Positions 29,624-63,840 of a stretch of 64,000 nucleotides of DNA are shown in pieces. The position numbers and the translations under genes were made by a program. The notes under the pieces were generated by a model that was not told the DNA's origin, searched no databases, and worked only from the letters and a program-made list of their open reading frames with translations. Source of the DNA: a virus; IMG/VR virus record IMGVR_UViG_3300049719_000183, positions 8,486 through 72,485 of that record. One strand, written 5' to 3'. Within the stretch, counting starts at the first letter, position 1. The number at the start of each line of letters is the position of its first letter.

Positions 29624-29917
29624 ATGAGCTTCTATGAGATTCCCCGTACGGTGCTGATGGGCCGCAACAGTCACCTGCGTTCCGAGAACGAGAAACTGCG
29701 TGCCGTGCTCAAGGAGTGGCTTGCGGCCACGGATGCCCGCATGGCTCTCGGAAGCAACGATGATCGTGCTGCAGCCAACGTGCGGGTGTGCGCTGCCTAC
29801 GATCAGGCCTGTCTTCTCATTCATTGGGAGGGCGAGAAGCCGCCCAAGAATAGGAGCACTCTCAAACGGCGAGATCATCTGATGGCAAACGGTTCAACCC
29901 AACTCTCCCTTTTGTGA
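29624..29917 (+). CDS. Small protein ending in QLSLL
   Basis: Coupled ORF; C-terminus resembles the beta-clamp motif. Confidence 0.55.
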   Translation: MSFYEIPRTVLMGRNSHLRSENEKLRAVLKEWLAATDARMALGSNDDRAAANVRVCAAYDQACLLIHWEGEKPPKNRSTLKRRDHLMANGSTQLSLL

Positions 29918-30189
29918 CTGAGTGGAAAATTACAGAGGCCACCATTGAGGCGGTCAACAAGGTGATCGAAGCAGCCGTGAAGGCTGACTATGATCGTCTG
30001 CGTGCATCAGGCACGAAGCTCAACCCTCTCACCGTGCCGCTTCTGCACCCGAAGAAAAAGCGCAAGAACTACAGCAAGGCTCACGGCTTCCACGACTTCA
30101 TGGCCGAGGTGCACGAGTGCCAGGCGCGTCCTGTAGCTCACGTTCCCAAGCGTAGATTCACTTTCGAGGAAGGTACTCATGACCAATAA
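29914..30189 (+). CDS. Small protein with RRFTF tail
   Basis: GTGA coupling; PKRRFTF. Confidence 0.6.
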   Translation: MTEWKITEATIEAVNKVIEAAVKADYDRLRASGTKLNPLTVPLLHPKKKRKNYSKAHGFHDFMAEVHECQARPVAHVPKRRFTFEEGTHDQ

Positions 30190-30214
30190 CTTAGGAAATA
30201 GTCCATCTTTATTC

Positions 30215-30242
30215 TCGACTTTCGTGCCATGTGACCTAAGAT
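30215..30242 (+). promoter_or_regulatory. Promoter-like TCGACT-N16-TAAGAT (second copy at 32806-32833)
   Basis: Same hexamers and spacing at both sites, each 6-7 nt before an ATG, in AT-rich sequence at gene boundaries. Confidence 0.6.
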
Positions 30243-30249
30243 GGGTCTC

Positions 30250-30396
30250 ATGTACGGAACACTCCACCTCAAAACACTCGTCGATGTCGCCGAGTTTCTC
30301 GCTGAGTTCGCCAAGACGGGCAGCACCGCCGTCTTCGAGGTTGCCTTCAAGAACAACAACGTCGGGTACGAGGTCAGGTTCACGGGGGGCATATAA
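30250..30396 (+). CDS. 48-aa protein (not in ORF track)
   Basis: MYGTLHLKTLVDVAEFLAEF...YEVRFTGGI; follows the promoter; TAATG coupling. Confidence 0.6.
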   Translation: MYGTLHLKTLVDVAEFLAEFAKTGSTAVFEVAFKNNNVGYEVRFTGGI

Positions 30397-30750
30397 TGAG
30401 CGCCGTCAACCAGATCAAGTTCAACGCTACCGTGGCGGTTCGCCAGTTGGGCAAGCGGCGTTACAGCGCTGCCCTCTTCGCCGTCAGGGGCCTGTTCAGG
30501 GGTGTCGGTCAACTCTTCGCCTGATGAACGTCCCCGCCAACTACACCACCTAACATGACAACCACCGATTCCATGACCACCGCCCTCTACTTCGCCGTCC
30601 CCCTGCTTTCCGTCGCGCTGGTCGCTTCGCCGACCTGAGGGCCGAGGCTCGGGCCAAGGAGGAGAGCGCCCGCGGCGACCGCAGGCTCGCCGTCACGCTC
30701 GACGACCGCATCACCAAAATACTCATCAACGCCCGCAGGAAGATTTCTTA

Positions 30751-31218
30751 ATGTCCCCCCGTCAATCCATCGACCTCGCTGAGCAACTGGCCCACCTTCT
30801 TGCGGAGGGCCAGTTTCGCCGTGACAAGATGGGTGCCTTAATGGTGCCTGCTATCGTGCACTCTGAGCAGGTGGTCGCCCTGCTGGTCGCTGCTGGTGCG
30901 GATTGGGTGGAGGTGTCGGCGGGCTGGCTGCATGATACGCCGGAGGATGCGCTGGACCCTGACGCCATGTTCGAGCACCTGCGCAAGGCGGGTGTTTCGC
31001 CGAGCGTTCTGGAGGTGGTCAGCCTGCTCACCCACAGGAAGGGTGTCTCCAATCTCGACTACATCAACCAGATGATCCACTACCCTGATCGCAAGGCTGC
31101 CCAGAGGGCCATGCGGGTGAAGAGGGCCGATATACAGGCCAACCTCGCGGATGCCCCCACGGCGTATGCCGTGGAGAAGTACGGGCGCGCCCTGAAGTGG
31201 ATGGAGGCGGTGTCATGA
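30751..31218 (+). CDS. HD-domain hydrolase, SpoT/Mesh1 (small alarmone hydrolase)-like
   Basis: GQFRRD...P..VH..V; AGWLHDTPED; VSLLTH; VKRADIQANL. Confidence 0.8.
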   Translation: MSPRQSIDLAEQLAHLLAEGQFRRDKMGALMVPAIVHSEQVVALLVAAGADWVEVSAGWLHDTPEDALDPDAMFEHLRKAGVSPSVLEVVSLLTHRKGVSNLDYINQMIHYPDRKAAQRAMRVKRADIQANLADAPTAYAVEKYGRALKWMEAVS

Positions 31219-31417
31219 GGTGTGAAGGTGAAGTGGCCATGAAGCTGAATTTCTACCGCACCCGCCAGTGCAAGCGTGAGGCGCAGGAGGGAAGTTGCTT
31301 CTGCCGTCTCCATGACCCTGCGCTTGAGAAAGAGCGTGCCGCTGCAAAGCAGGCCCGCTGGGAGGCGCGCCAGCCGCTCGCCCATGCGATGCGCTTCGAG
31401 GCGGTATTGAAAAAGCC

Positions 31418-32317
31418 ATGAAGCCGAAGTCATTCGATCAGGTGGTGGAGTCACTGGGATACTTGGGGTACAGCCCCACGGAGGATGAACTGGCCACGGC
31501 CAAGGCCCTATTTGAGGGCCGCACCCGCCAGCAGGTGCTCTACGGTCCCGCCAAAGCCTCACTGCGTACGGTGCAGAAGGTGATTGCCCTCATCGGGTGG
31601 GACCTGACATGGCGCACCATTTCCACGAAGTCGAGGCTGGAGCGGGTGCAGGCTGCTCGGCGGGAGGCTGCAAAGGCCTACGCCAGCAGCAAGCCCGAGG
31701 ACCTTCGCCTTGTGTTGGCTAAGCTTGGGGACACTCCGGAGCCGTGGCATCTGAAGGCGGCATCACTCCTGTGGAACGGTGAAAACTCCAGCGTTGTCAG
31801 GAGGATGCTTCGTGTCGGTGACAGTAAGGTACAGGCTGTGGCCACTCGCATTGGGTGGGATCTTAGCTGGCGCACCATCTCGCACATGAAGCGGCCTCCG
31901 AACAAGGTCCGCATGGCGGGCATGTTCACCACGGATCAGGTGGTCGAGCTGTACGACAAGCAGGGACTCACTCTCCAGGCGATTGGTGACAGGGCGGGCG
32001 TGAGCAGGGAGCGGGTGCGCCAGATCCTCGAAGCCACGGGCCATGACTATGTAGCTGACCGCAAGAAGCGGAGGGACGAGCAGAAGGAGAAGGACCGGCT
32101 TGATCGCAAGCAGAAGCGCTTTGATCATTTCAAGGGCACCTATGCTAGCCGATACGCTGAGGCGATTGCATTGTGGGACGCCGGTGTCACGACGAAGGCC
32201 ATGGCAAAGCTGCTGAAGACGACAAAGGTCAACGTGGGTGCTATCATTCATCGCGGACGCCACAAGTACGGGCTGTTCCCATATCGTCGTCCCGAGTACG
32301 GCAAGGGGGTCTCGTGA
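31418..32317 (+). CDS. Multi-HTH DNA-binding protein with sigma region-4-like HTH
   Basis: IGWDL(T/S)WRTIS twice; GLTLQAIGDRAGVSRERVRQIL. Confidence 0.75.
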   Translation: MKPKSFDQVVESLGYLGYSPTEDELATAKALFEGRTRQQVLYGPAKASLRTVQKVIALIGWDLTWRTISTKSRLERVQAARREAAKAYASSKPEDLRLVLAKLGDTPEPWHLKAASLLWNGENSSVVRRMLRVGDSKVQAVATRIGWDLSWRTISHMKRPPNKVRMAGMFTTDQVVELYDKQGLTLQAIGDRAGVSRERVRQILEATGHDYVADRKKRRDEQKEKDRLDRKQKRFDHFKGTYASRYAEAIALWDAGVTTKAMAKLLKTTKVNVGAIIHRGRHKYGLFPYRRPEYGKGVS

Positions 32318-32775
32318 AGAAAGGAGATTCAGGCTTGGGCGGTTGGGAGTTCAATCGTCCTGTGGTCACTGTCTCCCTGAAGGAGATGGTGAAGATGGCC
32401 AAGAAGAAGAGCGTTACGCTCGATCTGGCTAGGCTGGTAGCTTCCAAGAAATCCAAACAGGTCATCGCCGCCGATCCCTACACGGGTGGGGATTACGATG
32501 GCGGCTACGACACTACGTCGTGGAAGTACAAGTATGAGAAGGAGGACGAGGAGCCCGCCGAGTGGCCGAAAAAATCAGATGCGTGGATCGAGATGATGAA
32601 GCTGGCAAAGCGGCAGGCAAAGAAGCACGCCATCAGGAAGCCCAAGAAACGGAAGCCGAGGAAGCCTAAGGAGGTGACGCCCACCCCGCCGCCTGTTGAT
32701 CCCATCACCCCCGGCAAACGCAGATTTAACTTCGATCTTAAGTCTGACACTTCCAACTCACAACCAACAAGTTAG
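32314..32775 (+). CDS. Basic protein with RRFNF tail
   Basis: GTGA coupling; Lys/Pro-rich; PGKRRFNF. Confidence 0.55.
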   Translation: MKKGDSGLGGWEFNRPVVTVSLKEMVKMAKKKSVTLDLARLVASKKSKQVIAADPYTGGDYDGGYDTTSWKYKYEKEDEEPAEWPKKSDAWIEMMKLAKRQAKKHAIRKPKKRKPRKPKEVTPTPPPVDPITPGKRRFNFDLKSDTSNSQPTS

Positions 32776-32871
32776 GAACCATTAAATTGGAACCCTGTTT
32801 TAGTCTCGACTCCACCTTCCCAACCCATAAGATGGTCCCATGAGCGAAACACTGACACATGTCATCCGCGA

Positions 32872-33492
32872 GTGAGCGACCGCATCATCATAGCTCCTGG
32901 CGTGGCACTCCCCCATTACCCGATGAGGCCAATGATGGGTGTGCGCCTGCGCACGATTGAGCAGGCTATCGAAGCGCTCGACTCCATGAGGAAGACGCAT
33001 GTGTTTCAGCCGAAGATGAACGGCGACCGTGTTGAACTGTCCAAGGACGGGGACGGCAACCTCCACGCCTTCCAACGCCACCTGAAGCGTTACACCTACA
33101 GCTTCGACTTGAAGCCGTGGCAGAAGCTGCCCAAGCTAACGTGCCTCGATGGCGAGGTGAAGGACGGCCACTTCCACCCGTTCGAGGCCGAGGCATGGGA
33201 CGGTGTGAGCCTGTTATCTGCCACTCAGGAAGACCGCATCGCTCAGGCTGAGCGCAGTTGCGCCGAGTGCGGCAGGCCGTTCGAGTTCGATTTGGAGAAC
33301 CCTGTCGGTGCCTACGGCTGCACGCTCGAAACCCTTCTCGAAGTGTACCTCGGCGAAACCGACCAACCCCGCAACACGAGTCCCTATTGGGAGGGCATTG
33401 TGGCCAAGAAGAAGAGCTGCCGTTACAATGTTCTCGGCGTCGTGAAGGACGATCCGAACTGGATCAAGCTGAAGTTCTGGTATGCCCTGTAG
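32872..33492 (+). CDS. ATP-dependent ligase-like nucleotidyltransferase core without OB-fold
   Basis: QPKMNGDR, LDGEV, EGIVAKK, WIKLK, then stop. Confidence 0.75.
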   Translation: MSDRIIIAPGVALPHYPMRPMMGVRLRTIEQAIEALDSMRKTHVFQPKMNGDRVELSKDGDGNLHAFQRHLKRYTYSFDLKPWQKLPKLTCLDGEVKDGHFHPFEAEAWDGVSLLSATQEDRIAQAERSCAECGRPFEFDLENPVGAYGCTLETLLEVYLGETDQPRNTSPYWEGIVAKKKSCRYNVLGVVKDDPNWIKLKFWYAL

Positions 33493-34229
33493 GTGCGGAC
33501 TTGTTTTTACCTTCAACCCTCAAACAACATGATCGTACGCGAAATCAGGGACAACCCGAATCTCCTCATCGAGGCGTTCGACTGGTTCAATGACTACAAG
33601 GACACCCGGTCCTGGGCCGTGGTGAATTGCCCTGCCCTGGTCGATGCTCTCGACCTTGGCCACGACACATGGCTAAGAGAGCACAACGCATCTATCCTGG
33701 CATCTATCAGGGACAGGTAATTTATGGACGGAAAAATCACATTCGACAAGGCTGACTTTGCCTCCGTGCGGGCCGACACCACGCTGGTGCAGCCCACTTA
33801 CGAGGAGTGCCCGGAGCCTCTTGACATGCTTCCCGGTACGTCGGTGAAGACCTACGTTGACAGTAAGCTCGGCGAGCCCCCTCTGTGCGGCAGGCTGTCA
33901 CGCCTCTCAGAGGATGGCGCTGTTGTAGTCGGCTACGGCTGGCTCGATATGCCCAGTGAAACATTCGTCTGGCGGGGCACCCGTGACGAATACGCCCGCA
34001 CCTGGGTGTGCGACTAATATCATGAAAAATCCACCCAATCCAAACAGCAAGAACAGCCTCAGGAAGGCCGAGCGCAAGGAGTCCAAGCGACGGGAAAGGC
34101 TCTACCCGATAGCCCATGTGGTGGCAAATCAACTGGGTCAAGCAGAGGCGGAGAGCCGGTTCATCCACGAGCCGAGAAGAAGCGACTGGACTCCCAGCGC
34201 GGAGGGCTGCGCAGATTCACTTTCCTACC

Positions 34230-34946
34230 ATGAAACGTACCACCCATCGCACGCCACCCGACAACCTTGTGTTGCCTTCCAACCCCGCTGCACTCATGGC
34301 CCTTCTCAACGGAGACATTGGCAACTTCGCCATTGCCTCTACGCCCGGCGGTATCGAGGCACAGGAGAAGGCAGGCCAGATGGCCCAGGCCCTCAAGGAA
34401 ACGCTGCCCATCGACGGCACCATTGAGACCAAGTTCGGCCGCGACAACCCGAGGGCAACGTGGGAGAAGCTAGGCTTCAAGTTCGGCAAGAAGACGGAGG
34501 ACATCTTCGTGGAGTGCACATTCCCGAAGGGCTGGAAGAAGCAGGAGACCGACCACAGCATGTGGACCGACCTCCTGGACGAGCACGGGCGCAAACGGGC
34601 TGCCATCTTCTACAAGGCGGCGTTCTATGATCGTTCGGCCCACGTATCCCTGTGCCACCGCTTCGGCGTCAGGCGCAAGTACCCCGATAATAGGGGAGAC
34701 CCCCTTACGGTGTACGTTGAGGATCAGAACGGCGAGGTGAGCCGTGAGATCGCCGACCTGCCCCAGCCCGACTGGAAGGACCGCGAGGAGTCGAAGAAGC
34801 TCTCCGACAGGATCGACGCCGCTGAGGCCGAGCTGAGGGACTGGCTCACTGCCAAGTTCCCGGACTGGGGGAAGGCCTGGGCCTACTGGGACACGCCGCC
34901 CGTCCCCGAGGCTCGTCGCAGGTTCAACATGGGAGCAGGAACATAA
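34230..34946 (+). CDS. Phage hypothetical protein with RRFNM tail
   Basis: PGGIEAQEKAGQ...TDHSMW...IFYKAAFYDR. Confidence 0.75.
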   Translation: MKRTTHRTPPDNLVLPSNPAALMALLNGDIGNFAIASTPGGIEAQEKAGQMAQALKETLPIDGTIETKFGRDNPRATWEKLGFKFGKKTEDIFVECTFPKGWKKQETDHSMWTDLLDEHGRKRAAIFYKAAFYDRSAHVSLCHRFGVRRKYPDNRGDPLTVYVEDQNGEVSREIADLPQPDWKDREESKKLSDRIDAAEAELRDWLTAKFPDWGKAWAYWDTPPVPEARRRFNMGAGT

Positions 34947-36176
34947 TGGCTAAATACATCGTACATACCCGGGGCATCATGCCCGAGAGCATGGTCATTT
35001 TCGACCATGCCACACCCCATGTGGAAATGGTGGAGATGCTCCACGTTCCGAGAGAGTGCATCGTGTCGGCAGGCAGGGTGAAATTCGTCGGTGACACAGC
35101 CTACTGCGACATGGAGAGCGAATCTCTCGGCATCAGGCGTGATGAGCACCGTGAGGAAAAAGATCGCAGGCTGGCCAACGTCACCTTCGACCCGCTATAC
35201 AGGGAATGATCTTCAAGACGCATCGTGAGGCCAAGGAGGCTGTTCGGAGGCGGGGGCTGAGGAGCTGGCAGATCGCGGTCGTGCGAGGCCCCAGGGGTGG
35301 CAGACGCCCCATCGCCTACGACCTTACCGACCTTGAGAGGCCTGATATGCCTGGCCTCACGGCCAGGCGGTTCAACTTCGCACAATAGTGTTTACAAACA
35401 GACAAAATCCTGTTTACGTTTCTTCCGTGAAAGCCGAGCCCGCATTCAAGATTGGCCAGCGTGTTAAGGTGCTTGTGTGCCCGGGCTATTGGTATTGCAG
35501 GCACGGGATCATCACGAGAAAGGCCAAGAAGAGTGCCTGCGTGATTCCGTGCCCGGCCCACTTGGAGAGACCATACACCTCTCGCGGTTGGAAGGGGGCG
35601 GAACGTGATTTTGAGGCCACATTTTCTCACTGGACGTTTGGAGCCCACGCTACTGCACGACGTAAGGCATTGGGCCTCGCCTCTTGGGGCTTTCGTGTGC
35701 CCTACGTGGACATCGTGCCCGAGTCGGAGGCAAAACTATGAAGGCTACCATCAAAATCAACATGGACAACGCAGCGTTTGAGCCTGACTTCAATGTCGAG
35801 CTTGCACGCTTGCTCGAAGCAGTTGCCGCCCGCATACGGGACGTTGGATGCAGCGGCGCGGGCTCCAAACGTCCGATCAGCGACATCAATGGAAATCTGG
35901 TTGGGGGGCTCGCCATATCGAAGTGAAGGTGTTCGACTCCATCGTTACTGAGGCCGAGATCGCCTGCGTGCTCCAGCGCATGAGGGCGAAGCCTTTCACT
36001 CTGTCCGATCTGAGACAGGCGGCTGACGATGCGGGCGTTGTCTACACCTACGAGTTCTGTTGCCGTCTCATCAATAAGCACCGCAGCGAACTTCGCCCAG
36101 TCACAGGCCGAAACATCCGCCCTCGCACCTGGGAGTGGGTGGGTGAGGCCACAAAGCACGAAAGGGAACTCCCGAG

Positions 36177-36521
36177 ATGGCACGCACCATGAAATTCTAC
36201 AAGATGACTCCTGTCACCATCGACCTTGTCAAGGAGCGTCGATATGTGGCTATGCACGACGCCCACTGGCTCAACATTCCTCGCAGGAAACGCGGGGCTG
36301 CATTGAAGCGCAAGAGCGAGCTTCGCAAGTGGCACACCCCTGCGGACTGCGCCCGCCTCCACCAACTCCTCGATCTTGTGGAGAAGGGCAAACTTATGGA
36401 CGCTGTGGCTGCCACCCGCAAGTGGCCGGGGTCCCTGAGGGAGGCTATCAGCGAGGAGATATGGGACATGCTCTGGAACGTCTCCAGGGACGAAGCCCGT
36501 TACCTCATCATGGCCGAATGA
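36177..36521 (+). CDS. Hypothetical protein
   Basis: ORF in the co-oriented early array. Confidence 0.55.
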   Translation: MARTMKFYKMTPVTIDLVKERRYVAMHDAHWLNIPRRKRGAALKRKSELRKWHTPADCARLHQLLDLVEKGKLMDAVAATRKWPGSLREAISEEIWDMLWNVSRDEARYLIMAE

Positions 36522-37674
36522 GAAGTAACGGAACCTATGCCTCCCGTGACTAGAAATGCCCACTTCGCCACGATCAAAAACCCCTGGAAAGGCAAGTCCA
36601 TGCAGAGGTCTTCGCCCGAAGTGGGAGGAGACGTACAAGTGCGGCTGCGTGGCGGGAGCGCCCCGCAAGAGGGAACTTCTGGGATATTGCGCGAAGCACG
36701 GAACCGACCGAGAGGGAATCCCGTGGAACAACGAGGAGAACCAGGTGGTAGACGGAGTGACGTACGCAGCGCACAACCCGACAATTCGGTCTGCTCGGAA
36801 GATTTATCTCGGCCACCTGTTTCGCAGGCTGGCCCAGGGACCGGATTGAACCGCACCGAGGATCGATGGGCTTGGAACCTCGTACGCATTGGCATCCGTA
36901 AATCTGCCGTTTCCTACATCGTGAAGATCACAGGATGCAGTCTCCAGGAAGCCCGTTCTTACGTCCGACAACTTGCCACCAAAAAATTGTAAACTATTTC
37001 TGTTTACATTAAACAGGATTTGTGATCCCACTCAAACACCGTCAATTATGGATACCAACATCACGCCCATCACGCCCGAACAGCGAGCCGCACGCTGGGG
37101 GTTGTTCGCCAAGATCGCCGTCTTTGCCATAGGCGGTCTTCTGTTCTACAAGATCGCTGTCGCTACCGTTGTCGGGATGATAGGCCTCATCGTCGCCGCC
37201 GTCATCGGGGCTCTCTTCATTGCATTCCTCCCCATCGTGGGACGGCTGGTCTCAATCTATCGGCTCAACGAGGACGCCACCACCGCAGCCAACGAGGCCG
37301 TGGATCGTTGCTACCCCAACCCCACCTGATGCTCACTGCCAAGGCCATCATGAAGGTGCAGAAGATGCGGGACCAGATGCCTGTGGTCCGCCACATTCCA
37401 CGCAAGAAGAGCAGCCTGAAACCCTCAGGACGCCGCTATCGCTCGGTGCAGGCACTGATCTCGGAGCAGGCCATTCCCGACTCCTTCAGCTATCACGAGA
37501 TGATGGACCGTGTGTCCATCTACAATGGGTTGGTGGACGATCTGGTCACACATCCCGTGGCCGTGAAGCACACAAGTATTCGCCTGCTTGCCATCGAGGC
37601 CACACAGGTGCTCACGGCCCTCTACGAAGAGGCTGTCAAACTGCATCCTGGCCAACCACAACCATAAACCCAAA

Positions 37675-38190
37675 ATGAAGATCGATACCAGAATCACAAT
37701 CGCCCGACTCAATCGTGAGGCCGAGCAGTACGAACGGGACGCCGCCATCTGCAGGAAAGCGGCTGAGGAGCTTGGAGCCACCGAGAAACTGCTGCGGGAG
37801 ATTGACACCCGCATCGCCACACCCACGGCGGTGATCGAGCCCCCGAAGCACAAGGTGATCAAGAAGGCCAAGAAGCGGCCAAGCAAGTACACTGTCGCTA
37901 GGACCAAGCGGGCGCTGTATTCCAGTCCCCAGGTGGTCGCCGCTGCCTGCCGTCAGGTGTTCGCCAACAACCCTGACAAGCCCATCTTCAGGACGAAAAC
38001 GCTGAAGAACGAGGTGCGCAAGATCGAGGGCGTCACCGTTCGGAGCAATCGCACGCTCGGCCAGATGCTGAAGAAGTTCCAGGAGTTCCGGCGCGGCGAG
38101 GACAAGGCGACCTGGTGCTGCCCGAGCATCACCCCCGTCCCGATCCACACTGAGCCGCAGGCCACCCTGGCCGCTGTCGGAGGTGCCTAG
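37675..38190 (+). CDS. Basic hypothetical protein
   Basis: MKIDTRITIARL...; coiled coil plus possible winged helix. Confidence 0.6.
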   Translation: MKIDTRITIARLNREAEQYERDAAICRKAAEELGATEKLLREIDTRIATPTAVIEPPKHKVIKKAKKRPSKYTVARTKRALYSSPQVVAAACRQVFANNPDKPIFRTKTLKNEVRKIEGVTVRSNRTLGQMLKKFQEFRRGEDKATWCCPSITPVPIHTEPQATLAAVGGA

Positions 38191-38213
38191 GCCCCTACTC
38201 GTCCACCAGCGCC

Positions 38214-38687
38214 ATGACAATCCCAGACGTTCCTGATCATCGCACCAAGCCCCTCAAGACGAGGGGTATGAAGGTGGTCATCAACAATTGCTTCGGGGGC
38301 TTCTCACTCTCGGAGGTGGCTGTCATGCGGCTGGTGGACGAGCAGTTTCCCTTGGAGAGCTGGCCTTGGGATCCAAACGAGAAATTCAACGTATCCATAG
38401 GCAGGGCAACGCAGGCGCACGATCTCGGCAACGGCTGGGTGCGCTATGGCGACAGCAGCATGTTCAGCAGCCTTGTGAAGAACGGCATGGTGTACAGCAG
38501 CCATCTCAGTGACGACAAGCTGCGGGCCGATCCTCGCCTCGTTAGGCTGGTGGAAGAGATGGGAGATGATGCTTGTGGTCCCTGTGCGGATCTGAAGGTG
38601 GTAGTCATTCCCGAGGGCGTGGACTACGTCATCGAGGAGTACAATGGCTCGGAAACGGTGGCTGAGAAACACAGGACGTGGTCATGA
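38214..38687 (+). CDS. Phage hypothetical protein
   Basis: KVVINNCFGGFSLS...RADPRLVRLVEEMG...IEEYNGSETVAEKHRTW. Confidence 0.8.
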   Translation: MTIPDVPDHRTKPLKTRGMKVVINNCFGGFSLSEVAVMRLVDEQFPLESWPWDPNEKFNVSIGRATQAHDLGNGWVRYGDSSMFSSLVKNGMVYSSHLSDDKLRADPRLVRLVEEMGDDACGPCADLKVVVIPEGVDYVIEEYNGSETVAEKHRTWS

Positions 38688-39367
38688 ACTGCCCCTATTG
38701 TGACCGTGTCATCAACGCGTGGACAGGCTTGCAGGAGCTTCAGAAGTTCCAGAAGCATCTGGGAAAGTGCCGCAAGAACCCGGCCAACTTTCCCCTTCCC
38801 CTGAGGGGCGGCAGGAGACTCATCTCCCCCTCCTGTCCCACCATGAACGACGCCCTCATCCTGAGGCACGAAAGCGGCCAATGATCACTGACACCACTCT
38901 TAGCAACATCGGCACTATAATCCGCGATTACCACCAGCGGGGCTACCCCATGGTGTTTGTGCCCGAGCACTGGCCTCAGTTGGTGGCCGAGATAAAACGG
39001 CTGCAGGAGTTCGAGAAGAACGAGTTGGTGGCCCGTGTACAGAGGGCGGAACAGTTGGATGAGATTCTGACCACCCTTCGGCGCATTGAAGCCGCTTTCG
39101 ACAGGAGGATACGACCAGAATGAGCCTCAGCGTCCATCCGAGCCCCCGCCTCAACAGGCAGTTGGCCATGAAGGAGCCTAGCAAGCTCGCTCAGGCCATT
39201 ACCTGTGAGTTCATTGCCTGTCCTGCCAGGGATGGCAAGCTGTCCCATCTCGGCACCCGCATGGCCCACATCGTGGACGCCCACTTGGAGAACCTGCTAA
39301 AGGTGGCCACGCTGGGCAGTGACATCGAGCACGCACAGGAGAACATCAAGCACGCCACCCCCACGCC

Positions 39368-39640
39368 GTGAAGCCCGCCACCAAACCCTGTCCCTTCTGC
39401 GCCAACCCTCCCAGGTGGAGCTTTGAGCCCGTCACCGTGGATCACACGGAAGGCACTGTGGATCGCATTGGCTGCCCGTCCATCCATGTCTCTCTGGCCT
39501 GCGGGTGCAGGGCGCATCCCCATGTGGAGGCTAACGCTGATTTCTCAGACGGCATTTACAGGAGTGACTACTGGCTCCCCGGCACTCTTGAGTCCACCGT
39601 GCAAGACGTGGCCAACATCTGGAACACACAGAGACCGTGA
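39368..39640 (+). CDS. Lar-like (restriction alleviation) zinc-binding protein
   Basis: KPCPFC at N-terminus, WNT.R at C-terminus. Confidence 0.5.
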   Translation: MKPATKPCPFCANPPRWSFEPVTVDHTEGTVDRIGCPSIHVSLACGCRAHPHVEANADFSDGIYRSDYWLPGTLESTVQDVANIWNTQRP

Positions 39641-40386
39641 CCATCCTCGTTTACACGTCGCGAGAGCATCTCTGCACCTATCAGTCGGACATCATGCCTC
39701 GACTCGAAGAGAAGTTGGTGGGCATCCCAGGGCACGAGCACACTCCGTGGGTGGTGGGGGCCGTCGAGCACATCGTACCTATTGCACCAGACAAGCACCA
39801 GACGGCGGTGAAGGTAATTGTTTCCAGCCAGAGATGAAAACTCTCAAATGTGATCAAGCCCTTGTCAGTTTCTTCTCCGTCCTGAGCGGCGGATTCCTCG
39901 ATCCTACCCATTGGGAGAAGGCTGAGAAGGTGGCTATATTCAGGCTGCAGGCCGAAAAGCGGGGCTGCATGCAAGGCCCTCCTGCTGTCCCACAAGTTGG
40001 TGAAATACATCTCTGAGGAGGAAAGTACCCACAAAAAGGCGCTGTAGTGACCCTCTACCACCCCGCCCCCAAGTTAAAGCATTTTCCATTTGCAAGTGGA
40101 AACCACTTTTACCTGTTGAGCACCAGGAATGAACGCAGGTAAAAACACCAACTAGACATGTCACTATTCCAGCCCACCGATCCGAAGGACTTGGAGATTG
40201 AGCGGCTGACTACCGAGCGTACCCGGATGGTGCAGTGGGGGAACTTGGAGCGGGTGCCCGAGTTGGACCAGCACATCCACCGGCTGCGGGAGATGAAGCA
40301 CCGGGAGAGGTTGGCGAGGGAGAATGCCAGGTAACCCAAAGCGCATCTTCAACCTCATCGGCCCCACTCCACTCCGTCCGATGATG

Positions 40387-40639
40387 GCCATAAAGGTTGT
40401 GCCCGATACTCCTAATCCTTAAGGATTAAGGAACACTGTAAACAAATACTGTTTACAAAAACAGTATTGGCCTTATGATGCGAGTCATGAGGTACGAAGT
40501 CGTTGTCGGAAACATCGGAACAGTGTACTCGGGATCCAATGAGCGCCAAGCTCAGAAGGATTACGTCGAGTACGTCGAGCAGTCCAAAACCAACTATGGG
40601 CGGGCTGCGGGCGAGAGTGTAACCTTCTTCAAGGACGGT
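40387..40639 (+). repeat. 253-bp direct repeat, copy 2
   Basis: Identical by eye to 29040-29292; flanked by copies of 28635-28690 and 42613-42644. Confidence 0.95.
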
Positions 40640-40828
40640 TACGCTGTCAAATCAAGTACGTGGTGGGGGGTTCTGGCCGCCGTGAAATTCCCGCCCACGG
40701 TGTCAGAGGTGGCCTCACTGAGGGCTGAGAACGAACGGCTGAAGAAGCAACTGCGTCCGTCGGAACCAGAGGCCCCACCGCCTCCCATCGAGACGCCACC
40801 TAGGAGGTTTAGCTTCCAGCACACATAG
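40487..40828 (+). CDS. Chimeric small protein with RRFSF tail
   Basis: N-terminal part identical to the 29140 gene; different C-terminus. Confidence 0.6.
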   Translation: MRYEVVVGNIGTVYSGSNERQAQKDYVEYVEQSKTNYGRAAGESVTFFKDGYAVKSSTWWGVLAAVKFPPTVSEVASLRAENERLKKQLRPSEPEAPPPPIETPPRRFSFQHT

Positions 40829-40868
40829 TTTCCACTACAATTCTCAATTTAACTTTAGATTCCTTATC

Positions 40869-41444
40869 ATGCACCACGATACCATGTACGAACCCACCAA
40901 CAACAATACGAGGAACGTCCTCGGCGTCCTCTTCGCCTTCGTAGCAGCCCTCATCCTCATTGCTGACGGCACCTTCACCGTACTCGGCAACTACGAGTAC
41001 AGCAAGAGCATCGAGTCCTATTGGAGCCTGGCCGACAAGGCTTCCACCATCCCGCAGAAGTCCACGTACATTGACAAGTTCGTGGCAGCTCTGGAGGCAT
41101 CTTCGCTGCAGGGCCAGCACAACGCTGTGGTGCTCGACACACCCGACAACAGTTTCGACAGCAACCTCGAAGCACTGAAGACGCTGCAAACCCGCCTGCA
41201 CGAGATAGCGGGCATGGATGTCACGTCATTCCAGTACCAGACGGCCATACAGCAGATAACAGGACAGGAGCAGGGTGAGGCTCACCATCTGCTGGGCATA
41301 TTCGAGGGCTGCTGGTGGAAGGTGCACCACTTCTTCCTGTGGGGCTGGGTGGGCTGCATCAATGTGCTTGGCTCCATTATTCTCTTCATCGTTGGTCTCT
41401 GCATGCGCTTCGCTGACGTACTCACAATGGCCAAGGCTTTCTAA
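40869..41444 (+). CDS. Two-TM membrane protein
   Basis: Hydrophobic helices at both ends around a soluble domain. Confidence 0.7.
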   Translation: MHHDTMYEPTNNNTRNVLGVLFAFVAALILIADGTFTVLGNYEYSKSIESYWSLADKASTIPQKSTYIDKFVAALEASSLQGQHNAVVLDTPDNSFDSNLEALKTLQTRLHEIAGMDVTSFQYQTAIQQITGQEQGEAHHLLGIFEGCWWKVHHFFLWGWVGCINVLGSIILFIVGLCMRFADVLTMAKAF

Positions 41445-42715
41445 TGAGCTTCGGTGTCAAACGCAACGTGTCCGCTGCCCTCAAGCGTGTGGGCGCTGAG
41501 ATAGCTGGCATGTCGCATGGCAGCCTGTACGCAGGCGAACGATTTCCTCAGTCTCTTCGAGGAGCTGAACACCGACCCTGACCTAGGCACTCCGAAGGGC
41601 AGCCTGATAGGGCGCATGGGTGTGGACGTGTTCCTCATGGCAGCCACGCCTGAGATGATGGCTGACACGATCTCCAAGCTGGGCACCTCGGAGGTGTAGA
41701 TTGTTGTTTACAAAAACAGGAACCGTGATAGGAGTTAGGCAATGAGCCTTCCGTTCATTTTCCGTGTTCAGCCCTGCTCCTACAAGGGGTACAGCCTGCT
41801 ACAGTGGAAGGAGGCTGACGATCCCGACTTCGAGCCGATCAAGAACTCCCTGCAAATGCCAACGGAGGTGGCACAACATATCGTGAAGACGAGGTTGCTG
41901 TCGAAACTGCTCGACCCGGACGGCAAGAGCGACGCGGGGGAGTTGGCGCTAGTCCACAAGTGGATATATTCGGAAGCCAGTGAAGACGACCAGCGGACCA
42001 TGCTGGCCGAACTTCGCGCCCACACGGCGGCTGCGGTCGCCAGCAGGGACGCGGAGATTATCCGCAGGCTAGACGATCGTATCGCAGTAGTCCGCGCCGC
42101 AATTTCAGGGGGTGCCCGATGAGCACGCTTACCGAACGGATGAGGGAACCAGCCTTTGAGAATATCAAGTGCCTGTTGCACGAAGCCGCATCCGCAATCG
42201 AGGCGCTGCAGCGCGAGCTTGCTGACCTGCGCAACAGCTCGCCGCAAATCATGGACGACCTTGGCTTGAGCGAAGACAGGGGCATCGCCTTGTCGCCACG
42301 CTCACCTACAAGCCCAACTCCAACATGAAGACCCGGGCCGATAAGTTCGACGCCATCGAACATGGGTTCATCGACAACAACATCCCTGTTCCACGGTTTG
42401 AATGATGAAGCCTTACCTGATCAATTCCGCTGTTCGTGAGACCACCAGCGACCTGCGTTGGGTGCACCGTGATGCGCCCAACCCAAGCCCCGACAACATC
42501 GACATCTACCCACCATCCACCATCCCGAACGCCAAGCTTCAACAGCGTCGAGTGATGGTGGACTACTGGCGCGCCGGTCGGAAGAGGGGGCAGTGCCCCA
42601 GGCACATTGCCAGTCAAATCAAGTACGTGGTGGGGGGTTCTGGCGACGACATCGAATACGTGTACATGACCGAGCGGAGCGAGTGGTTCGATGTGGGGTT
42701 CATCGATTATCGCAA

Positions 42716-43228
42716 ATGAAGATACTCGACATGTCCGCAGGCCACAGGGCCATCTGGTTCAACAAGAATCAGCCCAACACCACCTATGTGGACATCCGTC
42801 CCGAGGTGAAGCCCACCGTGTGCGCCGACACCACCAAGGATCTGGCTGCAGCCGTGGGCGTGGGGTATAACCTCATCGTGTTCGATCCACCCCATGTGAA
42901 CGGCGGCAAGAATAGCCACATCTCCCGTGACTATGGCCACCACACCACGGCGCAGATTAGGCGCATCGTGCAGGAGAGCGCCCTGCAGGCCTGGTGGGTG
43001 AGCGAGAAGGATGCCGTCATGAGCTTCAAGTGGAACGACCATGACCAGAAGCTGGAGGCCATGTTGAAGCTGATGGACCCGTTCTGGGAACCCCTGGTGG
43101 GCTACAAAACCGCCAGCCGCCTGAAGCACAGGAGCAGCACGCAGTGGGTTCTTCTCAAGCGCCGTCCCGTCTATCCACTGCATCCACTGCACCAAAACTA
43201 TAGGCGACTATCCCCTGACGACACGTAA
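42716..43228 (+). CDS. SAM-dependent (amino) DNA methyltransferase-like protein
   Basis: MKILDMSAGHRAIWFNK; LIVFDPPH; FKWND. Confidence 0.8.
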   Translation: MKILDMSAGHRAIWFNKNQPNTTYVDIRPEVKPTVCADTTKDLAAAVGVGYNLIVFDPPHVNGGKNSHISRDYGHHTTAQIRRIVQESALQAWWVSEKDAVMSFKWNDHDQKLEAMLKLMDPFWEPLVGYKTASRLKHRSSTQWVLLKRRPVYPLHPLHQNYRRLSPDDT

Positions 43229-46067: not shown

Positions 46068-46316
46068 ATGCCCAAGCCGAAGACAGCCTCAGCGCACAGG
46101 GTTGAAACGCGCCACTCCAACTTCATGCTGAGCACCCACAAGGCTGTGCTGGTGCCTGCCCTGCATGAGGGCAAAATGGTACAGTTCAGAATGCCTTTCA
46201 CCATGCAGAAGAGCCTGTTAGAGGCTTTCACACACAAGTACGAGAAGTGCCCGATGTGTCTGCTTGAGGAAGAGGTTCTTCAACCTGTCCACCGTAGATT
46301 CAATTTCGCCACATGA
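46068..46316 (+). CDS. Small protein with RRFNF tail
   Basis: CPMC; PVHRRFNFAT. Confidence 0.6.
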   Translation: MPKPKTASAHRVETRHSNFMLSTHKAVLVPALHEGKMVQFRMPFTMQKSLLEAFTHKYEKCPMCLLEEEVLQPVHRRFNFAT

Positions 46317-46796: not shown

Positions 46797-47234
46797 GTGA
46801 AGACGCTCGCCATACTTCTCATCCTTGCCCATTTCTCCGGGGACTGGCTGCTGCAGACCCGTGCGATGGCCGAGAACAAGAGCCGTTATTTCACCACGCT
46901 GCTGTTCCACCTGGCCCTGATGCTTTCACCCATTGCGGCGGTGGTGATCATCCTTCACCCGATGCCAGCCAACCCTCTCGTGGGCGCTCTGTTCCTCTAC
47001 GCCGTTGCCCATGGCATACAGGACTGGTACCTGTGGCGTTTCTATGTCCAGATTCGGGGCGGTGACAATGCGTTCGAGGTGCCTACGGGTGGGCAGCCCT
47101 TCTGGCGTGGGCTACAGGAGACGAAGGTGTATGCCACACCAAAGCTCAACATGCGCCACGACTACGCTTTCTACAGCACCATCGCCATCGACCAGATGCT
47201 GCACCTGGTGGTGCTGTTCTTGATCTTTCTCTGA
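46797..47234 (+). CDS. DUF3307-like membrane protein
   Basis: LAHFSGDWLLQTRAMAENK; HGIQD; IDQMLH. Confidence 0.8.
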   Translation: MKTLAILLILAHFSGDWLLQTRAMAENKSRYFTTLLFHLALMLSPIAAVVIILHPMPANPLVGALFLYAVAHGIQDWYLWRFYVQIRGGDNAFEVPTGGQPFWRGLQETKVYATPKLNMRHDYAFYSTIAIDQMLHLVVLFLIFL

Positions 47235-54441: not shown

Positions 54442-54735
54442 GTGAACACCCGCCAACGCATTGACCGTCTGTTTGAGATAGCCACCCCACTAGCGCCTGG
54501 GGAGCTTTCTCCTGAGGAGCAGGAGGCTCTCATTGGCAACAACGCCACGCCGGAACAGGTTCAGGCCTATTTGGACCTGAAGGAGCAGTACGCCCAGGTG
54601 AGCGTTCCCTATCGCTATTCAAGTGCGATTGCCACGGCCAAGGGGGCGCCCGCTGTGCTGGCCTGCTGGTGTCACTATAAGGACGGCGGCAAGATTTTCA
54701 TCGCGATCACCAAGGATGGCGAGACCCACTCGTGA
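54442..54735 (+). CDS. Single-module protein with MNTRQRIDRLFE leader
   Basis: TAGTTA-N4-GTG; ends IAITKDGETHS, like the last module of 50609-52732. Confidence 0.75.
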   Translation: MNTRQRIDRLFEIATPLAPGELSPEEQEALIGNNATPEQVQAYLDLKEQYAQVSVPYRYSSAIATAKGAPAVLACWCHYKDGGKIFIAITKDGETHS

Positions 54736-60370: not shown

Positions 60371-60383
60371 GGGGGTATAGAAC

Positions 60384-61445
60384 TCAGGCGGTGAGCGCCC
60401 TGCCCACTTCCAGGAGTTCCTCACCTGTGAACCCGTCAAGGGGCTTCTTCAGCACCCAATCGTGTACCCAGTCCACGGAGGGCAGTCCCGTCAAAATGTC
60501 GGGATTTTTGTCGTGATGAGCGGGAGAAAGCTGGTAATCCGGCTCCACGAACGCGGCTAGGGGGCAGGCGTGGAACCGGGCGGCCTCCTCAGCCGTTCTG
60601 ATGACCACCTGAGCCCGATCCTCCCCAAGGGAGCCGTAGCCCTCCAACTCATCCACCGAAAGCCTCAGGTAGCGGGGATAGGGGCTTGGAAGGGCCAGCC
60701 ACTCGATGGCGAGGGTGTCCAGGTCGAGCAAGCCCACCCGCTTCGTCTGCCCCATCTCTCCGAAGTCTTGCTGGAAGGGGCTGCCCACGTAGTGGACATT
60801 GGCAGCCAGTGACTGTGGCTGGTGAACATGGCCGAGGAGCACTTGGTCGGCCTTCCGTAGGGTGGACAATATGATTCCGCCAGGCATCGAACGCCCGTTG
60901 TTCGTGGCCCCGCACACGGCCAGGTGTCCCAGTACAAGCACACGGTAGCCGGGGTATAAGAAACCATTGCTCTCTTTGCCATTTTTCAGCTCGTCGATGC
61001 GTCCAGCGAGCCACCAATCGGTCCACTCCTCGTCCTCTGGAAAGCTAACAGCAATGATAGCCAGATCATTGATGCGGATGATCTCACGACTCTCCACCAC
61101 ATGATGGTATTGGCCGTACATCCCACCAGGATGCTGCGCCGTGTCCCTGTAGGCCTGCTCGTGGTTGCCGATGAGCTTGATCGACAGCGTGGGATCTGGG
61201 CATATCCGATTCAGGCCCCGCATCACTGCACTGATCGTGGGGACGGGAAGCGCCTTACGGTCGTCCGTCGTGTCGCCCAGGTCGATCAGGTAGCTGCACT
61301 CATGCTGCCGGTACAGCGTAGCCAAGTCGGCGTAGAACCTTTCGACGCGCCACCGCTGCAGAGGGATCGCGAGGTTTGCGCGGAGCCTTTCGCCTTCCGT
61401 TGCCTCTGTGGCCTGCAGATCCGTGTACACGAGGGCTCTTGCCAT
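60384..61445 (-). CDS. Mre11/SbcD/gp47-like recombination nuclease
   Basis: YTDLQ, DLGD, LIGNHE, LGH, LGHVHQPQ, YVGSPFQQDFGE. Confidence 0.9.
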   Translation of the reverse strand: MARALVYTDLQATEATEGERLRANLAIPLQRWRVERFYADLATLYRQHECSYLIDLGDTTDDRKALPVPTISAVMRGLNRICPDPTLSIKLIGNHEQAYRDTAQHPGGMYGQYHHVVESREIIRINDLAIIAVSFPEDEEWTDWWLAGRIDELKNGKESNGFLYPGYRVLVLGHLAVCGATNNGRSMPGGIILSTLRKADQVLLGHVHQPQSLAANVHYVGSPFQQDFGEMGQTKRVGLLDLDTLAIEWLALPSPYPRYLRLSVDELEGYGSLGEDRAQVVIRTAEEAARFHACPLAAFVEPDYQLSPAHHDKNPDILTGLPSVDWVHDWVLKKPLDGFTGEELLEVGRALTA

Positions 61446-61944
61446 TTCCAGTAAGAACAGGCTGGGGATAGGGGTGGTCGATTACCCACATCCTCCCGTT
61501 CATGCCGTCAATGATCTTGAACACGTCCTGGATGGCAGGCACGTATTCAGCCGCAGACACCCTCAGGGTGCCTTCAATGTCACTTATGGCGATTGCCATC
61601 ACCCTGTTTTTTTCCAGGGCGAGGGCTAGGCTTTTGCTCAGGTTTATCTTCATAGAGTCGGGCCTTGAAGGCTGTCTTGATGATTTTGGACAGGCACTCG
61701 GCGGTCTTTCCGCAACAAGGGTGGTCGCCGTCCTCGAAGAAGACCTTAGTCACTAGCATCACGATCTCATCCAGGGCCATGTCCTTGCGGATCAGCTCTG
61801 CGCCACCCATGTCCCGCATCATCAGGACGGTCTCGCACAGCTCGGTCTTGGTGGCGAAGTTGGTCTCACCGTGGTCGATGTACTCCTCGCTGCAGTTGTT
61901 GGCAATCTGCAGCGCACGGTCCTTGGATATGGTGCCTCGCTTCT

Positions 61945-62571
61945 TCATGCTTTCCTCATTTTCTTCCTGCGAAGTATCTCCTTGTTGGTGTAGTAATCGG
62001 GGTGAACTTTCAGGAACCGTCTCAGACCCGCCTTCCACCTCTCCCTGCGTTTCCGAACGCCCAAGGCTGCCATTATCCGTGCGGTCTTCTGTCTGTTGAG
62101 GAGGGCGTGGTGGGGGCAGAGGACGCCTGGCTTGCCGTTCGCCTTTATCTCCACGGGAGTCTTGCAACAGGTGCACAATCCCAACTTCTTGCGACGTTCC
62201 CTAGCCCTGTTCTTCAGGAACTTGTCACGCTTTTTCCCATCTGGAGTGCTTCTGAACGCTCTGAGGGCTGCATTTTGCAGGATGATATGCCTTCTGCAGA
62301 GCTCACGAGGGCCTCCGTCCTTCCTGTGCCACACCGGGTTGTCGCATCTCAGGCATAGTCCGAGTTTCCTGCGTCTCTCCCGGTAGGCATTTGCACTGGC
62401 CCTGACTTTTGCCCTGCCCTCTTCCGTGCTCATCATGCGCTTTCTGTAGGCACGGCCCCAACGCAGGCACATCTTCTGGTGCCGCGCACAGACTCGGGCC
62501 GGGCTGCCGTCCAAGTTGACGGTGACGGGATCGCCACAGCGAATGCACGCTCCCCTCATATCAGAGATCAT
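61945..62571 (-). CDS. Basic protein with three CxxC...CxxH zinc-finger repeats
   Basis: GACIRC..VCARH; GLCLRC..LCRRH; GLCTCC..LCPHH. Confidence 0.75.
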   Translation of the reverse strand: MISDMRGACIRCGDPVTVNLDGSPARVCARHQKMCLRWGRAYRKRMMSTEEGRAKVRASANAYRERRRKLGLCLRCDNPVWHRKDGGPRELCRRHIILQNAALRAFRSTPDGKKRDKFLKNRARERRKKLGLCTCCKTPVEIKANGKPGVLCPHHALLNRQKTARIMAALGVRKRRERWKAGLRRFLKVHPDYYTNKEILRRKKMRKA

Positions 62572-63052
62572 GTGTGGGTGCTTTTCTCCTCGAACTCACG
62601 GGCCTTGTGGAGGAGATCAACAAGGCCTAACTCGCTGGTGACTGATTCGGCGGTGAAGCGATTTTTGAAGAGCGTCACCAGTCCGTTGGACTCCCTTCGG
62701 AAGACCAGGTTGGCACGGTCGATGTCCTCCTGCTTAAAGGTGCCGGGAGGAGCGTCTGTGAGGTCGAGTATCCTGTGTGGGGTCATGACACAGGAGAGAA
62801 CTCACTTGTGGTCCGAGGTGCAGGTATCGCCACCGCGACACCCAAAGTAGCCGTGACAGCAGATGTTAGCGGACGCCTTGTTGAGCCAGGCGGAGGCGGC
62901 GAGCAGGTGGTTTTGCTTGGTGTGGTCCGTCCCCGTCTCAGCGTGAGCTACACCCATGACGTAGACGGCCAGTTCGCGCAGCTCCCGACTCGGGAGCCTG
63001 CACATCTCCTGCGGGTTGGGCAGGTGCCTGAGACAAAACTCTTGTGGGTTAT

Positions 63053-63187
63053 TCATCTGAGGAAGGGTTCCACAGGCAGGTAATGCCCGTCACGTTGCAG
63101 CTGCAGCTGTAGAATCTCACAGTTTTTCAGGTTGCGGGTGGCCTCGAACTGCCCGTGCCTGACCAGGAGGATGCGCTGTGGTTTCAT
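63053..63187 (-). pseudogene. Internally deleted histidine phosphatase remnant
   Basis: MKPQRILLVRHGQ joined directly to NLKNCEILQL...DGHY; only 44 aa. Confidence 0.6.
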
Positions 63188-63840
63188 GCCATGACAAAGG
63201 TGAACCGGCGTTGGCGACTCTCGATGACGGGTTTTGGCTCTTCGTAATCGTAGTCGCACTCGTAGACGGTGGGCCGCTCCTTCACCTCGATCTCCTTGAT
63301 GATGATCTGCCCTCTCGTATTGGGGTCGATATTGATAGGTACACGAACCTGCACATAGGGCAGTCCACTGGCGGGGCTGGTAGACTGGGCGGTGATGACT
63401 CCATCCGTTTCGATGTACACCAACTCCCAACCGTTGTAGCCCATCTGCCAGATGTGCTTGCAATAGCCCTGCCAGGATGAGCCCACCATCACAGTGTGGA
63501 TGGTGCCTAGAGGCGCTGACCAGCTGGGAGGTTGATAGAGTTCACCCATAAGGGGTAATAGATTGCCCCTTAGAGGCCCTTCCTTCACTTAAGGGGTTGT
63601 GGAAGCCGCCGGGAATGTTGCCAGCATGCACGCAGTTGTCGCAGAGCGAGGGCTCGGGGGCGTGATACTGGAACATCCAAGCGATGTCTCTGAATTGGGG
63701 GTAGTCTGCGAGGTTCATTTGAAGCAGCGTTGGCAAATCCAGCGTGTGCAGCCGTTGTGAGAGTAGGCTGGGATGCGGTCGTGGCCGAACAACCAGCAGC
63801 GGAGTGTCCTAAGTAATCTCACACTGTCTGTCTCATTGCA

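Follow-up and report, generated by a model that had tools for sequence, protein, structure and literature searches.

Eight proteins encoded in a 64,000-nucleotide stretch of viral DNA (the window; bases 8486-72485 of the single 72,485-nucleotide virus contig IMGVR_UViG_3300049719_000183) share a five-residue motif, RRF[NTS][FM], displayed shortly before the stop codon of genes that appear mutually unrelated apart from their tails. The motif is real, selected at the level of the peptide, modular, conserved in orthologues and narrow in its lineage. With a probability of about 0.55, we regard its generalized form RR-Phi-[S/T/N]-Phi (Phi, a hydrophobic residue) as a portable short linear motif, which most likely would dock all of its carriers to one common receptor. 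The window encodes a T4-type portal, gp25-like and gp6-like baseplate wedge proteins, a gp32-like single-stranded DNA-binding protein (SSB) and UvsX, and from this set of genes it is taken to be a fragment of an uncultured T4-like phage.

A six-frame scan of the window returned 28 pentamers beginning with RRF, 8 of which fit RRF[NTS][FM], and all eight copies listed in the original prediction were recovered at their places. Every one of them ends 2, 2, 2, 3, 3, 4, 7 or 13 residues before a stop codon, in a frame that is open for at least 65 codons upstream; the remaining 8,485 nucleotides of the contig hold no further copy. In seven of the 123 called proteins the motif falls within the last 20 residues, and no called protein has it at any other position. 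Shuffling of whole proteins gave no tail match in 996 of 1000 trials and a single match in 4, and shuffling restricted to the last 20 residues gave none in 4983 of 5000 trials and one in the other 17. Thus the enrichment that had been expected relative to a shuffled proteome is borne out, no shuffle ever yielding more than one tagged protein against seven observed. The motif was not found in the structural module (1-29 kb) or in the cluster at 48-60 kb, in agreement with its reported absence from the structural genes and from the IDRLFE cluster.

The eight copies stand in dissimilar surroundings. Their flanks have no sequence in common, and an all-against-all BLASTP comparison of the carriers with the tails removed gave a best E-value of 0.03, over a low-complexity stretch, which supports the earlier statement that the carriers are unrelated. 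A proline occurs within 10 residues upstream of the motif in seven cases, the copy at 34210 being the exception, as was anticipated for a Pro-containing or flexible linker. The choice of residues within the motif is strict: the two arginines are never replaced by lysine, and the fourth position is only Thr, Asn or Ser. Including relatives, the consensus broadens to R-R-[F/I]-[S/T/N]-[F/L/M], and a scan of the window with this pattern returns the same copies only. A still more relaxed pattern, [KR][KR][FYW]x[FYW], adds the ends KKFGFK (7756-8565), KRYGFR (15396-15716) and KRFPYYT (25318-27738), where 0.18 would be expected; these were left out of the tag set, KRYGFR being the conserved end of an HU-like protein and kept in the related IMG/VR contig G001.

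The carriers, named here A to H in order of position, had been described as small proteins, which is true of most, their lengths ranging from 60 to 238 amino acids. Seven are encoded on the plus strand. Carrier A (29914..30189, 91 amino acids) ends in HVPKRRFTFEEGTHDQ, with the motif at 30151-30165. Carrier B (32335..32775, about 146 amino acids with an uncertain start) is Lys-rich and ends in PITPGKRRFNFDLKSDTSNSQPTS (motif at 32719-32733), and carrier C (34018..34233), a frame-0 reading frame that has no in-frame start, ends in GGLRRFTFLP (motif at 34210-34224). Carrier D (34230..34946, 238 amino acids) consists of a conserved alpha/beta domain and a 17-residue add-on, TPPVPEARRRFNMGAGT, with the motif at 34917-34931. 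Carrier E (35206..35388, 60 amino acids) ends in PDMPGLTARRFNFAQ (motif at 35365-35379) and is the last gene before a GTTTACA promoter at 35390. Carrier F (40487..40828, 113 amino acids) ends in EAPPPPIETPPRRFSFQHT (motif at 40802-40816), and carrier G (46068..46316, 82 amino acids) in LQPVHRRFNFAT (motif at 46293-46307). Carrier H lies on the minus strand (63184..63489, 101 amino acids, or 121 from a start at 63549) and ends in PKPVIESRQRRFTFVMA, with the motif at 63196-63210.

The constraint on the tail acts on the peptide and not on RNA or DNA, because the Arg codons switch between families and the orthologues differ only by synonymous or conservative changes. Across the copies the first arginine is encoded by CGT, CGC or AGG, the second by AGA, AGG or CGG, and the phenylalanine by TTC or TTT, so that both Arg positions draw on the CGN and AGR families. 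The orthologue of carrier A in G001 is 72% identical and ends in HVPKRRFTFDI; its motif codons are CGT CGG TTC ACC TTT versus CGT AGA TTC ACT TTC in the window, so that three of the five codons differ, all of them synonymously. The residues that follow differ in the two proteins, EEGTHDQ in carrier A and DI in its orthologue (7 versus 2). For carrier H, a search of 1.84 billion representative proteins gave a single clear homologue over the full length: P0153 (E = 3e-7, 40% identity), which ends in STNRRFSFVS versus SRQRRFTFVMA in carrier H. Here RRF[T/S]FV is kept, and both arginines are taken from the other codon family (CGC CGG TTC ACC TTT in carrier H, AGG AGG TTC TCT TTC in P0153). These two orthologue pairs, together with the CGN/AGR switches, uphold the argument of the original prediction that differing codons point to a constraint on the peptide.

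The same data bear on two explanations that involve no binding of the peptide. The start codon of the next gene lies 5-14 nucleotides past the motif in six of eight cases, as would suit a ribosome site, promoter or terminator serving that gene, or a nascent-peptide stall at termination. Against this, up to three of three bases differ within a codon with the residue kept, the next gene is more than 50 nucleotides away in two cases, and the distance to the stop varies from 1 to 13 codons, also between orthologues. The RNA element for the downstream gene that had been named as grounds for abandoning the idea is therefore contradicted by the codons, and we give a nucleic-acid element of any of these kinds virtually no probability. 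Alternatively, one ancestral 3' end could have been spread by recombination among early genes as a neutral remnant with no common function, in a genome that does shuffle segments (a 253-nucleotide repeat with a promoter and a gene start, described below). Such an origin is hardly credible: no nucleotide or peptide similarity extends beyond the five residues, the residues stay invariant over codons that have diverged to saturation, and the orthologues keep the motif and not its flanks.

Modularity is seen in carrier D, whose tail is an add-on to a conserved domain. The family comprises 1341 homologues at E <= 1e-10; among the best 119 of them none has the tail, nearly all stopping a few residues from the conserved ...AYWD, and the tail was likewise absent from all 54 loci examined of 80 found in IMG/VR. 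The suggestion that homologues in other phages might lack the tail is thus confirmed for this carrier. In the AlphaFold model of carrier D, the mean predicted local distance difference test score (pLDDT) is 88.3; it drops to 77 in residues 221-230 and is lower than 50 in residues 232-238, so the tail is probably disordered. Neither Pfam nor PHROGs gave a match that would indicate a function for carrier D, and no convincing solved structure was found for the model: the best Foldseek hit in the PDB had an E-value of 0.14, a VIA-wide comparison reached a best Z of 5.2, and the Atlas held no usable match. The gain of the tag would be recent enough to show as an add-on on a conserved domain.

A second tagged lineage is represented by the contigs that carry P0153 (L082-L087, 1.8-7 kb), in which gp47 is 60% identical to that of the window. 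One of these, L084, has three tagged genes inside 3.4 kb, ending in EPPPPPPPIEISKRRISFT, ATGPTITPRRFSLP and STNRRFSFVS (that is, in KRRISFT, PRRFSLP and NRRFSFVS), and one tag of this lineage stands behind a PPPPPPP linker, as in carrier F. Overall, ten independent carrier families bear the motif across three related lineages. The 87 other loci (L001-L081 and L088-L093), which make up about 1.47 of the 1.50 Mb scanned and of which all but L093 come from distant relatives, gave 17 scattered six-frame matches to the broad motif, mostly in frames that look non-coding, and a de novo screen for C-terminal k-mers in these loci found no tail motif as prominent as that of the window. The tag is confined to a narrow lineage of T4-like peat phages.

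Relatives of the window are few. In G001 the portal is 85%, UvsX 79% and the GT9 glycosyltransferase encoded at 27756-29075 82% identical to those of the window. A portal query of IMG/VR returned only G001 and the 12.7-kb contig L097, a structural module without the tag, and neither the portal nor the carrier H family alignment, used as queries against genome contigs, yielded further relatives. The SSB query had no match in IMG/VR until its homologue P0157 served as the query; carrier F had one marginal match there and carrier H none. Among 50,697 phage records, megablast detected nothing that matches 29000-41000. Near-identical contigs are present in several peat metagenome runs; over 29000-47000, contigs of four such runs are 99-100% identical and thus carry no information on polymorphism.

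The claim that the carriers are early proteins is plausible and rests on promoter motifs. The heptamer GTTTACA occurs in 11 gene-upstream regions versus 1.4 expected. The best of the sigma70-like promoters, at 29104..29132 (plus strand, TTTACA-16-TATGAT, scoring 10 of 12), lies within a CTGTTTACAAAAACAG palindrome (CTGTTTAC..AAACAG), and an exact copy of it at 40451-40479 precedes carrier F. The promoter-like element (C/T)TGTTTACA(A)AAACAG.., with a -10-like hexamer 16-17 nucleotides downstream, is found on the plus strand at 29104, 35390, 37002, 40451, 41706, 49247, 2876 and 7701, and the palindrome over the -35 hexamer suggests a shared operator. The GTTTACA promoters stand about 36-46 nucleotides before gene starts, including those at 29140, 35427, 37048, 40487, 41742 and 49282. 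Seven carriers belong to units headed by promoters of the type GTTTACA-N16-17-TAnnnT: A-E to the unit that starts at 29104, F as the first gene after 40451, and G to the unit that starts at 41706. Another element, TAGTTAG[GA], lies 9-10 nucleotides (25 at 1717) ahead of the start codons of genes in the structural module and of some others, and ahead of none of the carriers; its sites are at 11867, 24999, 25308, 41732 and 54432 on the plus strand and at 48129 and 1717 on the minus strand. This element could be an unusual ribosome site or else a late promoter whose leaders are very short; the T4 late promoter box TATAAATA has no match. Because sigma70-like promoters and not the TAGTTAG element stand ahead of them, the carriers are probably early or middle genes.

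The expression class also bears on the possibility that the tail is a virion-loading signal, by which small basic cargo would dock inside the prohead and be injected with the DNA. Encapsulin cargo-loading peptides and the T4 N-terminal capsid-targeting sequence are both short terminal addresses placed on unrelated cargo by a flexible linker, and the present tail, like the former, is a C-terminal peptide behind such a linker; it differs from both in its consensus and in the early-looking expression of its carriers. Encapsulin peptides bind the inner face of an HK97-fold shell that is co-expressed with the cargo; the present contig contains no capsid gene. Carriers A, B, C and E are strongly basic, as are the T4 internal proteins, and the core of carrier H is similar to repeats found in large proteins that are secreted or located at the surface. 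However, the carriers follow sigma70-like promoters instead of the TAGTTAG element of structural genes, and the N-terminal motif ..Q[RH]ID[RT]LFE.. of a separate cluster already fits a T4-style capsid-targeting and protease site, which leaves virion loading quite improbable. This second motif, the capsid signal of the original prediction, takes the form ..[RC]Q[RH]ID[RT]LFE.. at about residue 7 of several proteins of the 53-58 kb cluster. Its sites are at the N-termini at 53753, 54460, 54750 and 57522, internally at 54149 and 55659, and at contig base 5562. The T4 capsid-targeting signal is N-terminal and cleaved, and the L-x-E ending of the IDRLFE motif resembles the T4 prohead-protease site.

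The strictness of the arginines and of the fourth position argues for a specific protein pocket or an enzyme site over a generic affinity for membranes or nucleic acids, because Arg is never exchanged for Lys and position 4 is only Ser, Thr or Asn. Membrane targeting of the MinD or FtsA type uses a conserved C-terminal amphipathic helix of at least about 8-10 residues. Such a helix was rejected here: conservation is confined to five residues with unrelated flanks, the aromatics follow an i, i+2 spacing, and no Lys takes the place of Arg. Similarly, the Tat signal is an N-terminal S/T-R-R-x-F-L-K followed by a hydrophobic stretch, and it was dismissed since the present motif lies 1-13 residues from the C-terminus, is followed by no hydrophobic stretch and has the register RRF and not RRxF.

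If the tail were the recognition site of an enzyme, position 4 would be phosphorylated or glycosylated, and the Asn forms would be non-modifiable or pseudo-substrates. Position 4 is indeed Ser, Thr or Asn in all 12 copies over three lineages, all three residues are glycosyl acceptors, and two GT9-family genes (1800-2870 and 27756-29075) lie in the window, the latter being the one conserved in G001; the avoidance of the motif in protein bodies reported below is also compatible. On the other hand, Asn occupies position 4 in four of the eight window copies, Ser or Thr being found in the other four and in all four copies of the relatives, and Asn is no substrate for phosphorylation. The contig has no recognisable kinase, and a phage GT9 enzyme is equally likely to act on lipopolysaccharide or DNA. 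The consensus of basophilic kinases, RRx[S/T]-hydrophobic, was set aside as a description of the tail on account of the same four Asn copies, and recognition by a modifying enzyme seems very improbable overall.

Within the bodies of proteins the signature seems to be avoided. The last 25 residues of the window proteins contain 10 instances of RR-hydrophobic-[STN]; the bodies contain none, where shuffles predict 3.5-3.8. The components are not rare there: RR was observed 87 times versus 82 expected and RR-hydrophobic 26 times versus 25, and all 26 internal triplets precede a residue other than S, T or N. In G001, L084 and L087 the bodies likewise have none versus about 2 expected. The depletion in the window bodies, with P of about 0.04, is only suggestive, and avoidance of this kind would be expected if an exposed copy has a consequence.

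Such avoidance would also fit a signal that is harmful where unwanted, in particular a degron or timing tag through which the carriers, as a special case of docking, would be passed to a protease, unfoldase or adaptor (ClpX, Lon or a phage AAA+ protein) as the infection programme advances. The carriers lie in probable early units, and a basic and aromatic tag resembles the adaptor and degron tails RRKKAI of MuA, LRVVK of SspB and WRFAWF of Lon beta20. Degrons of ClpX and of tail-specific proteases are read at the extreme C-terminus with a free carboxylate, whereas here 1-13 variable residues follow the motif, 7 in carrier A versus 2 in its G001 orthologue, and the classical C-terminal degron was rejected for this reason. 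In addition, no protease or AAA+ gene was recognised in the contig, and carrier D comes from a widely conserved family that normally has no such tail. Proteolytic timing is therefore unlikely, though by no means far-fetched.

The docking motif that we favour would operate as follows. Unrelated early or middle products would have gained the motif independently and would display it 1-13 residues from the C-terminus, in all lineages, on a flexible, usually Pro-containing linker. The receptor would be a phage protein encoded beyond the available 72 kb or a host protein. The peptide would bind in an extended conformation, with the hydrophobic or aromatic residues i and i+2 inserted from the same face into a hydrophobic groove, the intervening small polar residue forming a hydrogen bond, and the two arginines pairing with an acidic patch. 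Binding, the single receptor and this mode of contact are what we infer from the composition and placement of the tail.

As described in PMC2988020, the unrelated proteins gp43, gp55 and gp33 of T4 and RB69 share an interchangeable C-terminal clamp-binding peptide, carried on a divergent, length-variable flexible linker and termed 'hydrophobic and acidic', which brings all of them to a single hub. The clamp epitope is the closest described system: it too is a short C-terminal peptide on unrelated carriers behind a divergent flexible linker, in a T4-type phage. Unlike it, RRF[TNS][FM] is basic and aromatic, with two arginines and no acidic residue, and the T4 carriers in that description are the polymerase and late-transcription factors, whereas here they are small proteins of the early region.

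A tail of the clamp-binding type may in fact be represented in this phage by another motif, ..[AF]ADDD... UvsX (19341-20654) ends in ..AVAADDDELQS and the product of 21414-22499 in ..PVFADDDSME; these hydrophobic-acidic tails are conserved in the G001 counterparts (..AVAADDDEEGN and ..SLFSDDDSSE, respectively). They represent another shared tail, with the character of the T4 clamp epitope. The product of 21414-22499 has a weak match to the late transcription activator family PHROG 836 (E = 0.008). Its identification as gp55 was not accepted, given that this was the only such match and that the sequence matches in the PDB were spurious repeat proteins. Because acidic clamp-type tails already seem to be present on UvsX and on this gp55-like candidate, we think that RRFxF would be read by something other than a clamp. 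No hidden clamp was detected by Pfam (E up to 1) among 13 unannotated proteins. A different kind of shared end, KDG[YE]THS, closes the products of 50609-52732 and 54442-54735 and of L087 6198-6986, and suggests that these proteins have a C-terminal domain, or another tail motif, in common.

Bacterial SSB tips and SspB-type adaptor tails follow a related design, in which the partner is contacted solely through a short terminal peptide on a disordered linker. There, one protein serves many readers, whereas here many proteins share one motif, and the sequences are unrelated. The gp32-like SSB of this phage (17513..18760, plus strand) carries about 170 disordered, Pro/Ala-rich residues at its C-terminal side and ends in PRRLSAALTRTLSRGV; its tip, LS.AL..TL.[RK]G[VA], differs from the RRFxF tag, and the likeness between the two goes no further than RRLS. 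Three further tails contain RR-hydrophobic-[STN], namely that of the SSB (RRLSAALTRTLSRGV), that of a 42-residue open reading frame (KRRYSAALF...) and that of a methyltransferase-like protein (YRRLSPDDT). The first (RRLSAAL..) is probably not a tag: the homologues of the SSB end in RRPVSEALTRTLNKGV, SRPVSNALAATLRRGV and QRGLSTALRRTLARAG, do not keep the RR, and the tip conserved in four homologues is a separate one, [LV]S.AL..TL.[RK]G[VA]. The 42-residue frame, at 30396-30524 in the early region, contains the SSB-tip look-alike KRRYSAALFAVRGLFRGV and could mimic the SSB tip. The third protein (42716..43228, plus strand, 170 amino acids, ending in NYRRLSPDDT), assigned to a DNA methyltransferase PHROG, is a possible weaker member of the tag set.

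Carrier C requires separate comment, since its copy at 34210 was originally placed behind a one-nucleotide frameshift in the gene starting at 34022. The copy does exist in another frame; this frame (34018-34233) has no ATG, GTG or TTG start and a codon score of -9.1 versus +6.3 for the +1 frame of ATG-34022, which would extend 200 nucleotides into carrier D. The TGA of carrier C overlaps the ATG of carrier D (ATGA), a typical coupled junction, and its frame directly continues the gene 33724-34017 beyond the TAA at 34015-34017. The copy thus needs either a -1 shift or read-through of this TAA. The A5 run at 34025-34029 is spanned without an indel by two contigs, X1 (33734-38855, likely source sample) and X2 (33611-34145, an independent peat sample); the break is therefore not an error of one assembly. 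No classical slippery heptamer was evident in the sequence at this copy. A -1 shift, read-through of TAA and a recently broken gene are all possible.

Carrier F is a chimera. Its residues 1-51 are identical to the start of the gene 29140-29349, the rest being unique, and its junction is also present on a second contig of 1,094 nucleotides (P0121). The perfect 253-nucleotide direct repeat in question occupies 29040-29292 and 40387-40639, 11.3 kb apart, and is adjoined by a perfect 56-nucleotide repeat (28635-28690 and 40333-40388); assembly contigs stop at the edges of both. At the second site, the 3' end of the GT9 gene, shortened by an internal deletion, is duplicated together with the intergenic promoter and codons 1-51 of 29140-29349. 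This duplication yielded the chimeric carrier F and a 32-residue remnant reading frame that ends in AIKVVPDTPNP, as does the GT9 protein. The donor gene 29140-29349, the first after the early promoter, encodes a 69-residue domain (VVVGNIGTVYSG...NYGRAAGESVT), which is 55-72% conserved in 27 other metagenomic proteins and often fused to other domains. Other products of the window include an SbcD/gp47-like nuclease, a UvsW-like helicase (3825-6677; ResIII/DEAD/Helicase_C) split by an intein (Pfam Intein_splicing), a DksA-like protein, two GT9 glycosyltransferases and two DNA methyltransferases.

Several of these observations weigh against docking to a common receptor. A clamp, polymerase, AAA+ machine, protease or kinase could not be made out in the 72-kb contig, which is part of a probable genome of at least 150 kb, and no receptor was found. 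The tag is known from three lineages with short contigs only, which puts co-variation with a receptor beyond reach, and a conserved core of five residues is short for high-affinity binding. The depletion in protein bodies is weak, being one P-value of about 0.04 among several patterns tried. Finally, the copy at 34210 lies outside an intact reading frame, and carrier F, as a recent chimera, may be non-functional.

A bolder version of the docking motif would make it an addressing code private to the phage, with a strong consequence wherever it is exposed, that marks fast-changing early host-takeover proteins for one machine. This machine might be a protease or unfoldase adaptor by which early proteins are removed when late development begins, or else a basophilic kinase or glycosyltransferase, with the Ser/Thr tails as substrates and the Asn tails permanently unmodifiable. 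The copy at 34210 would then be a recoding device that, by a -1 shift or read-through of TAA, produces tagged and untagged forms. We hold this to be a distinctly doubtful reading.

Short linear docking motifs are central to the biology of eukaryotic viruses and have barely been charted in phages, where the clamp-binding tail on three T4 proteins is the textbook case. A full-text literature search, judged on titles and the openings of abstracts, found no description of the present motif or of a shared tail on phage early proteins. The RRFxF tag is a robust and unusually clean example of a shared phage tail tag. If its carriers do meet at one receptor, the tag would offer a five-residue handle for the recruitment of proteins in phage-infected cells, and the identity of that receptor would give a point of action to many 'hypothetical' early proteins at once.

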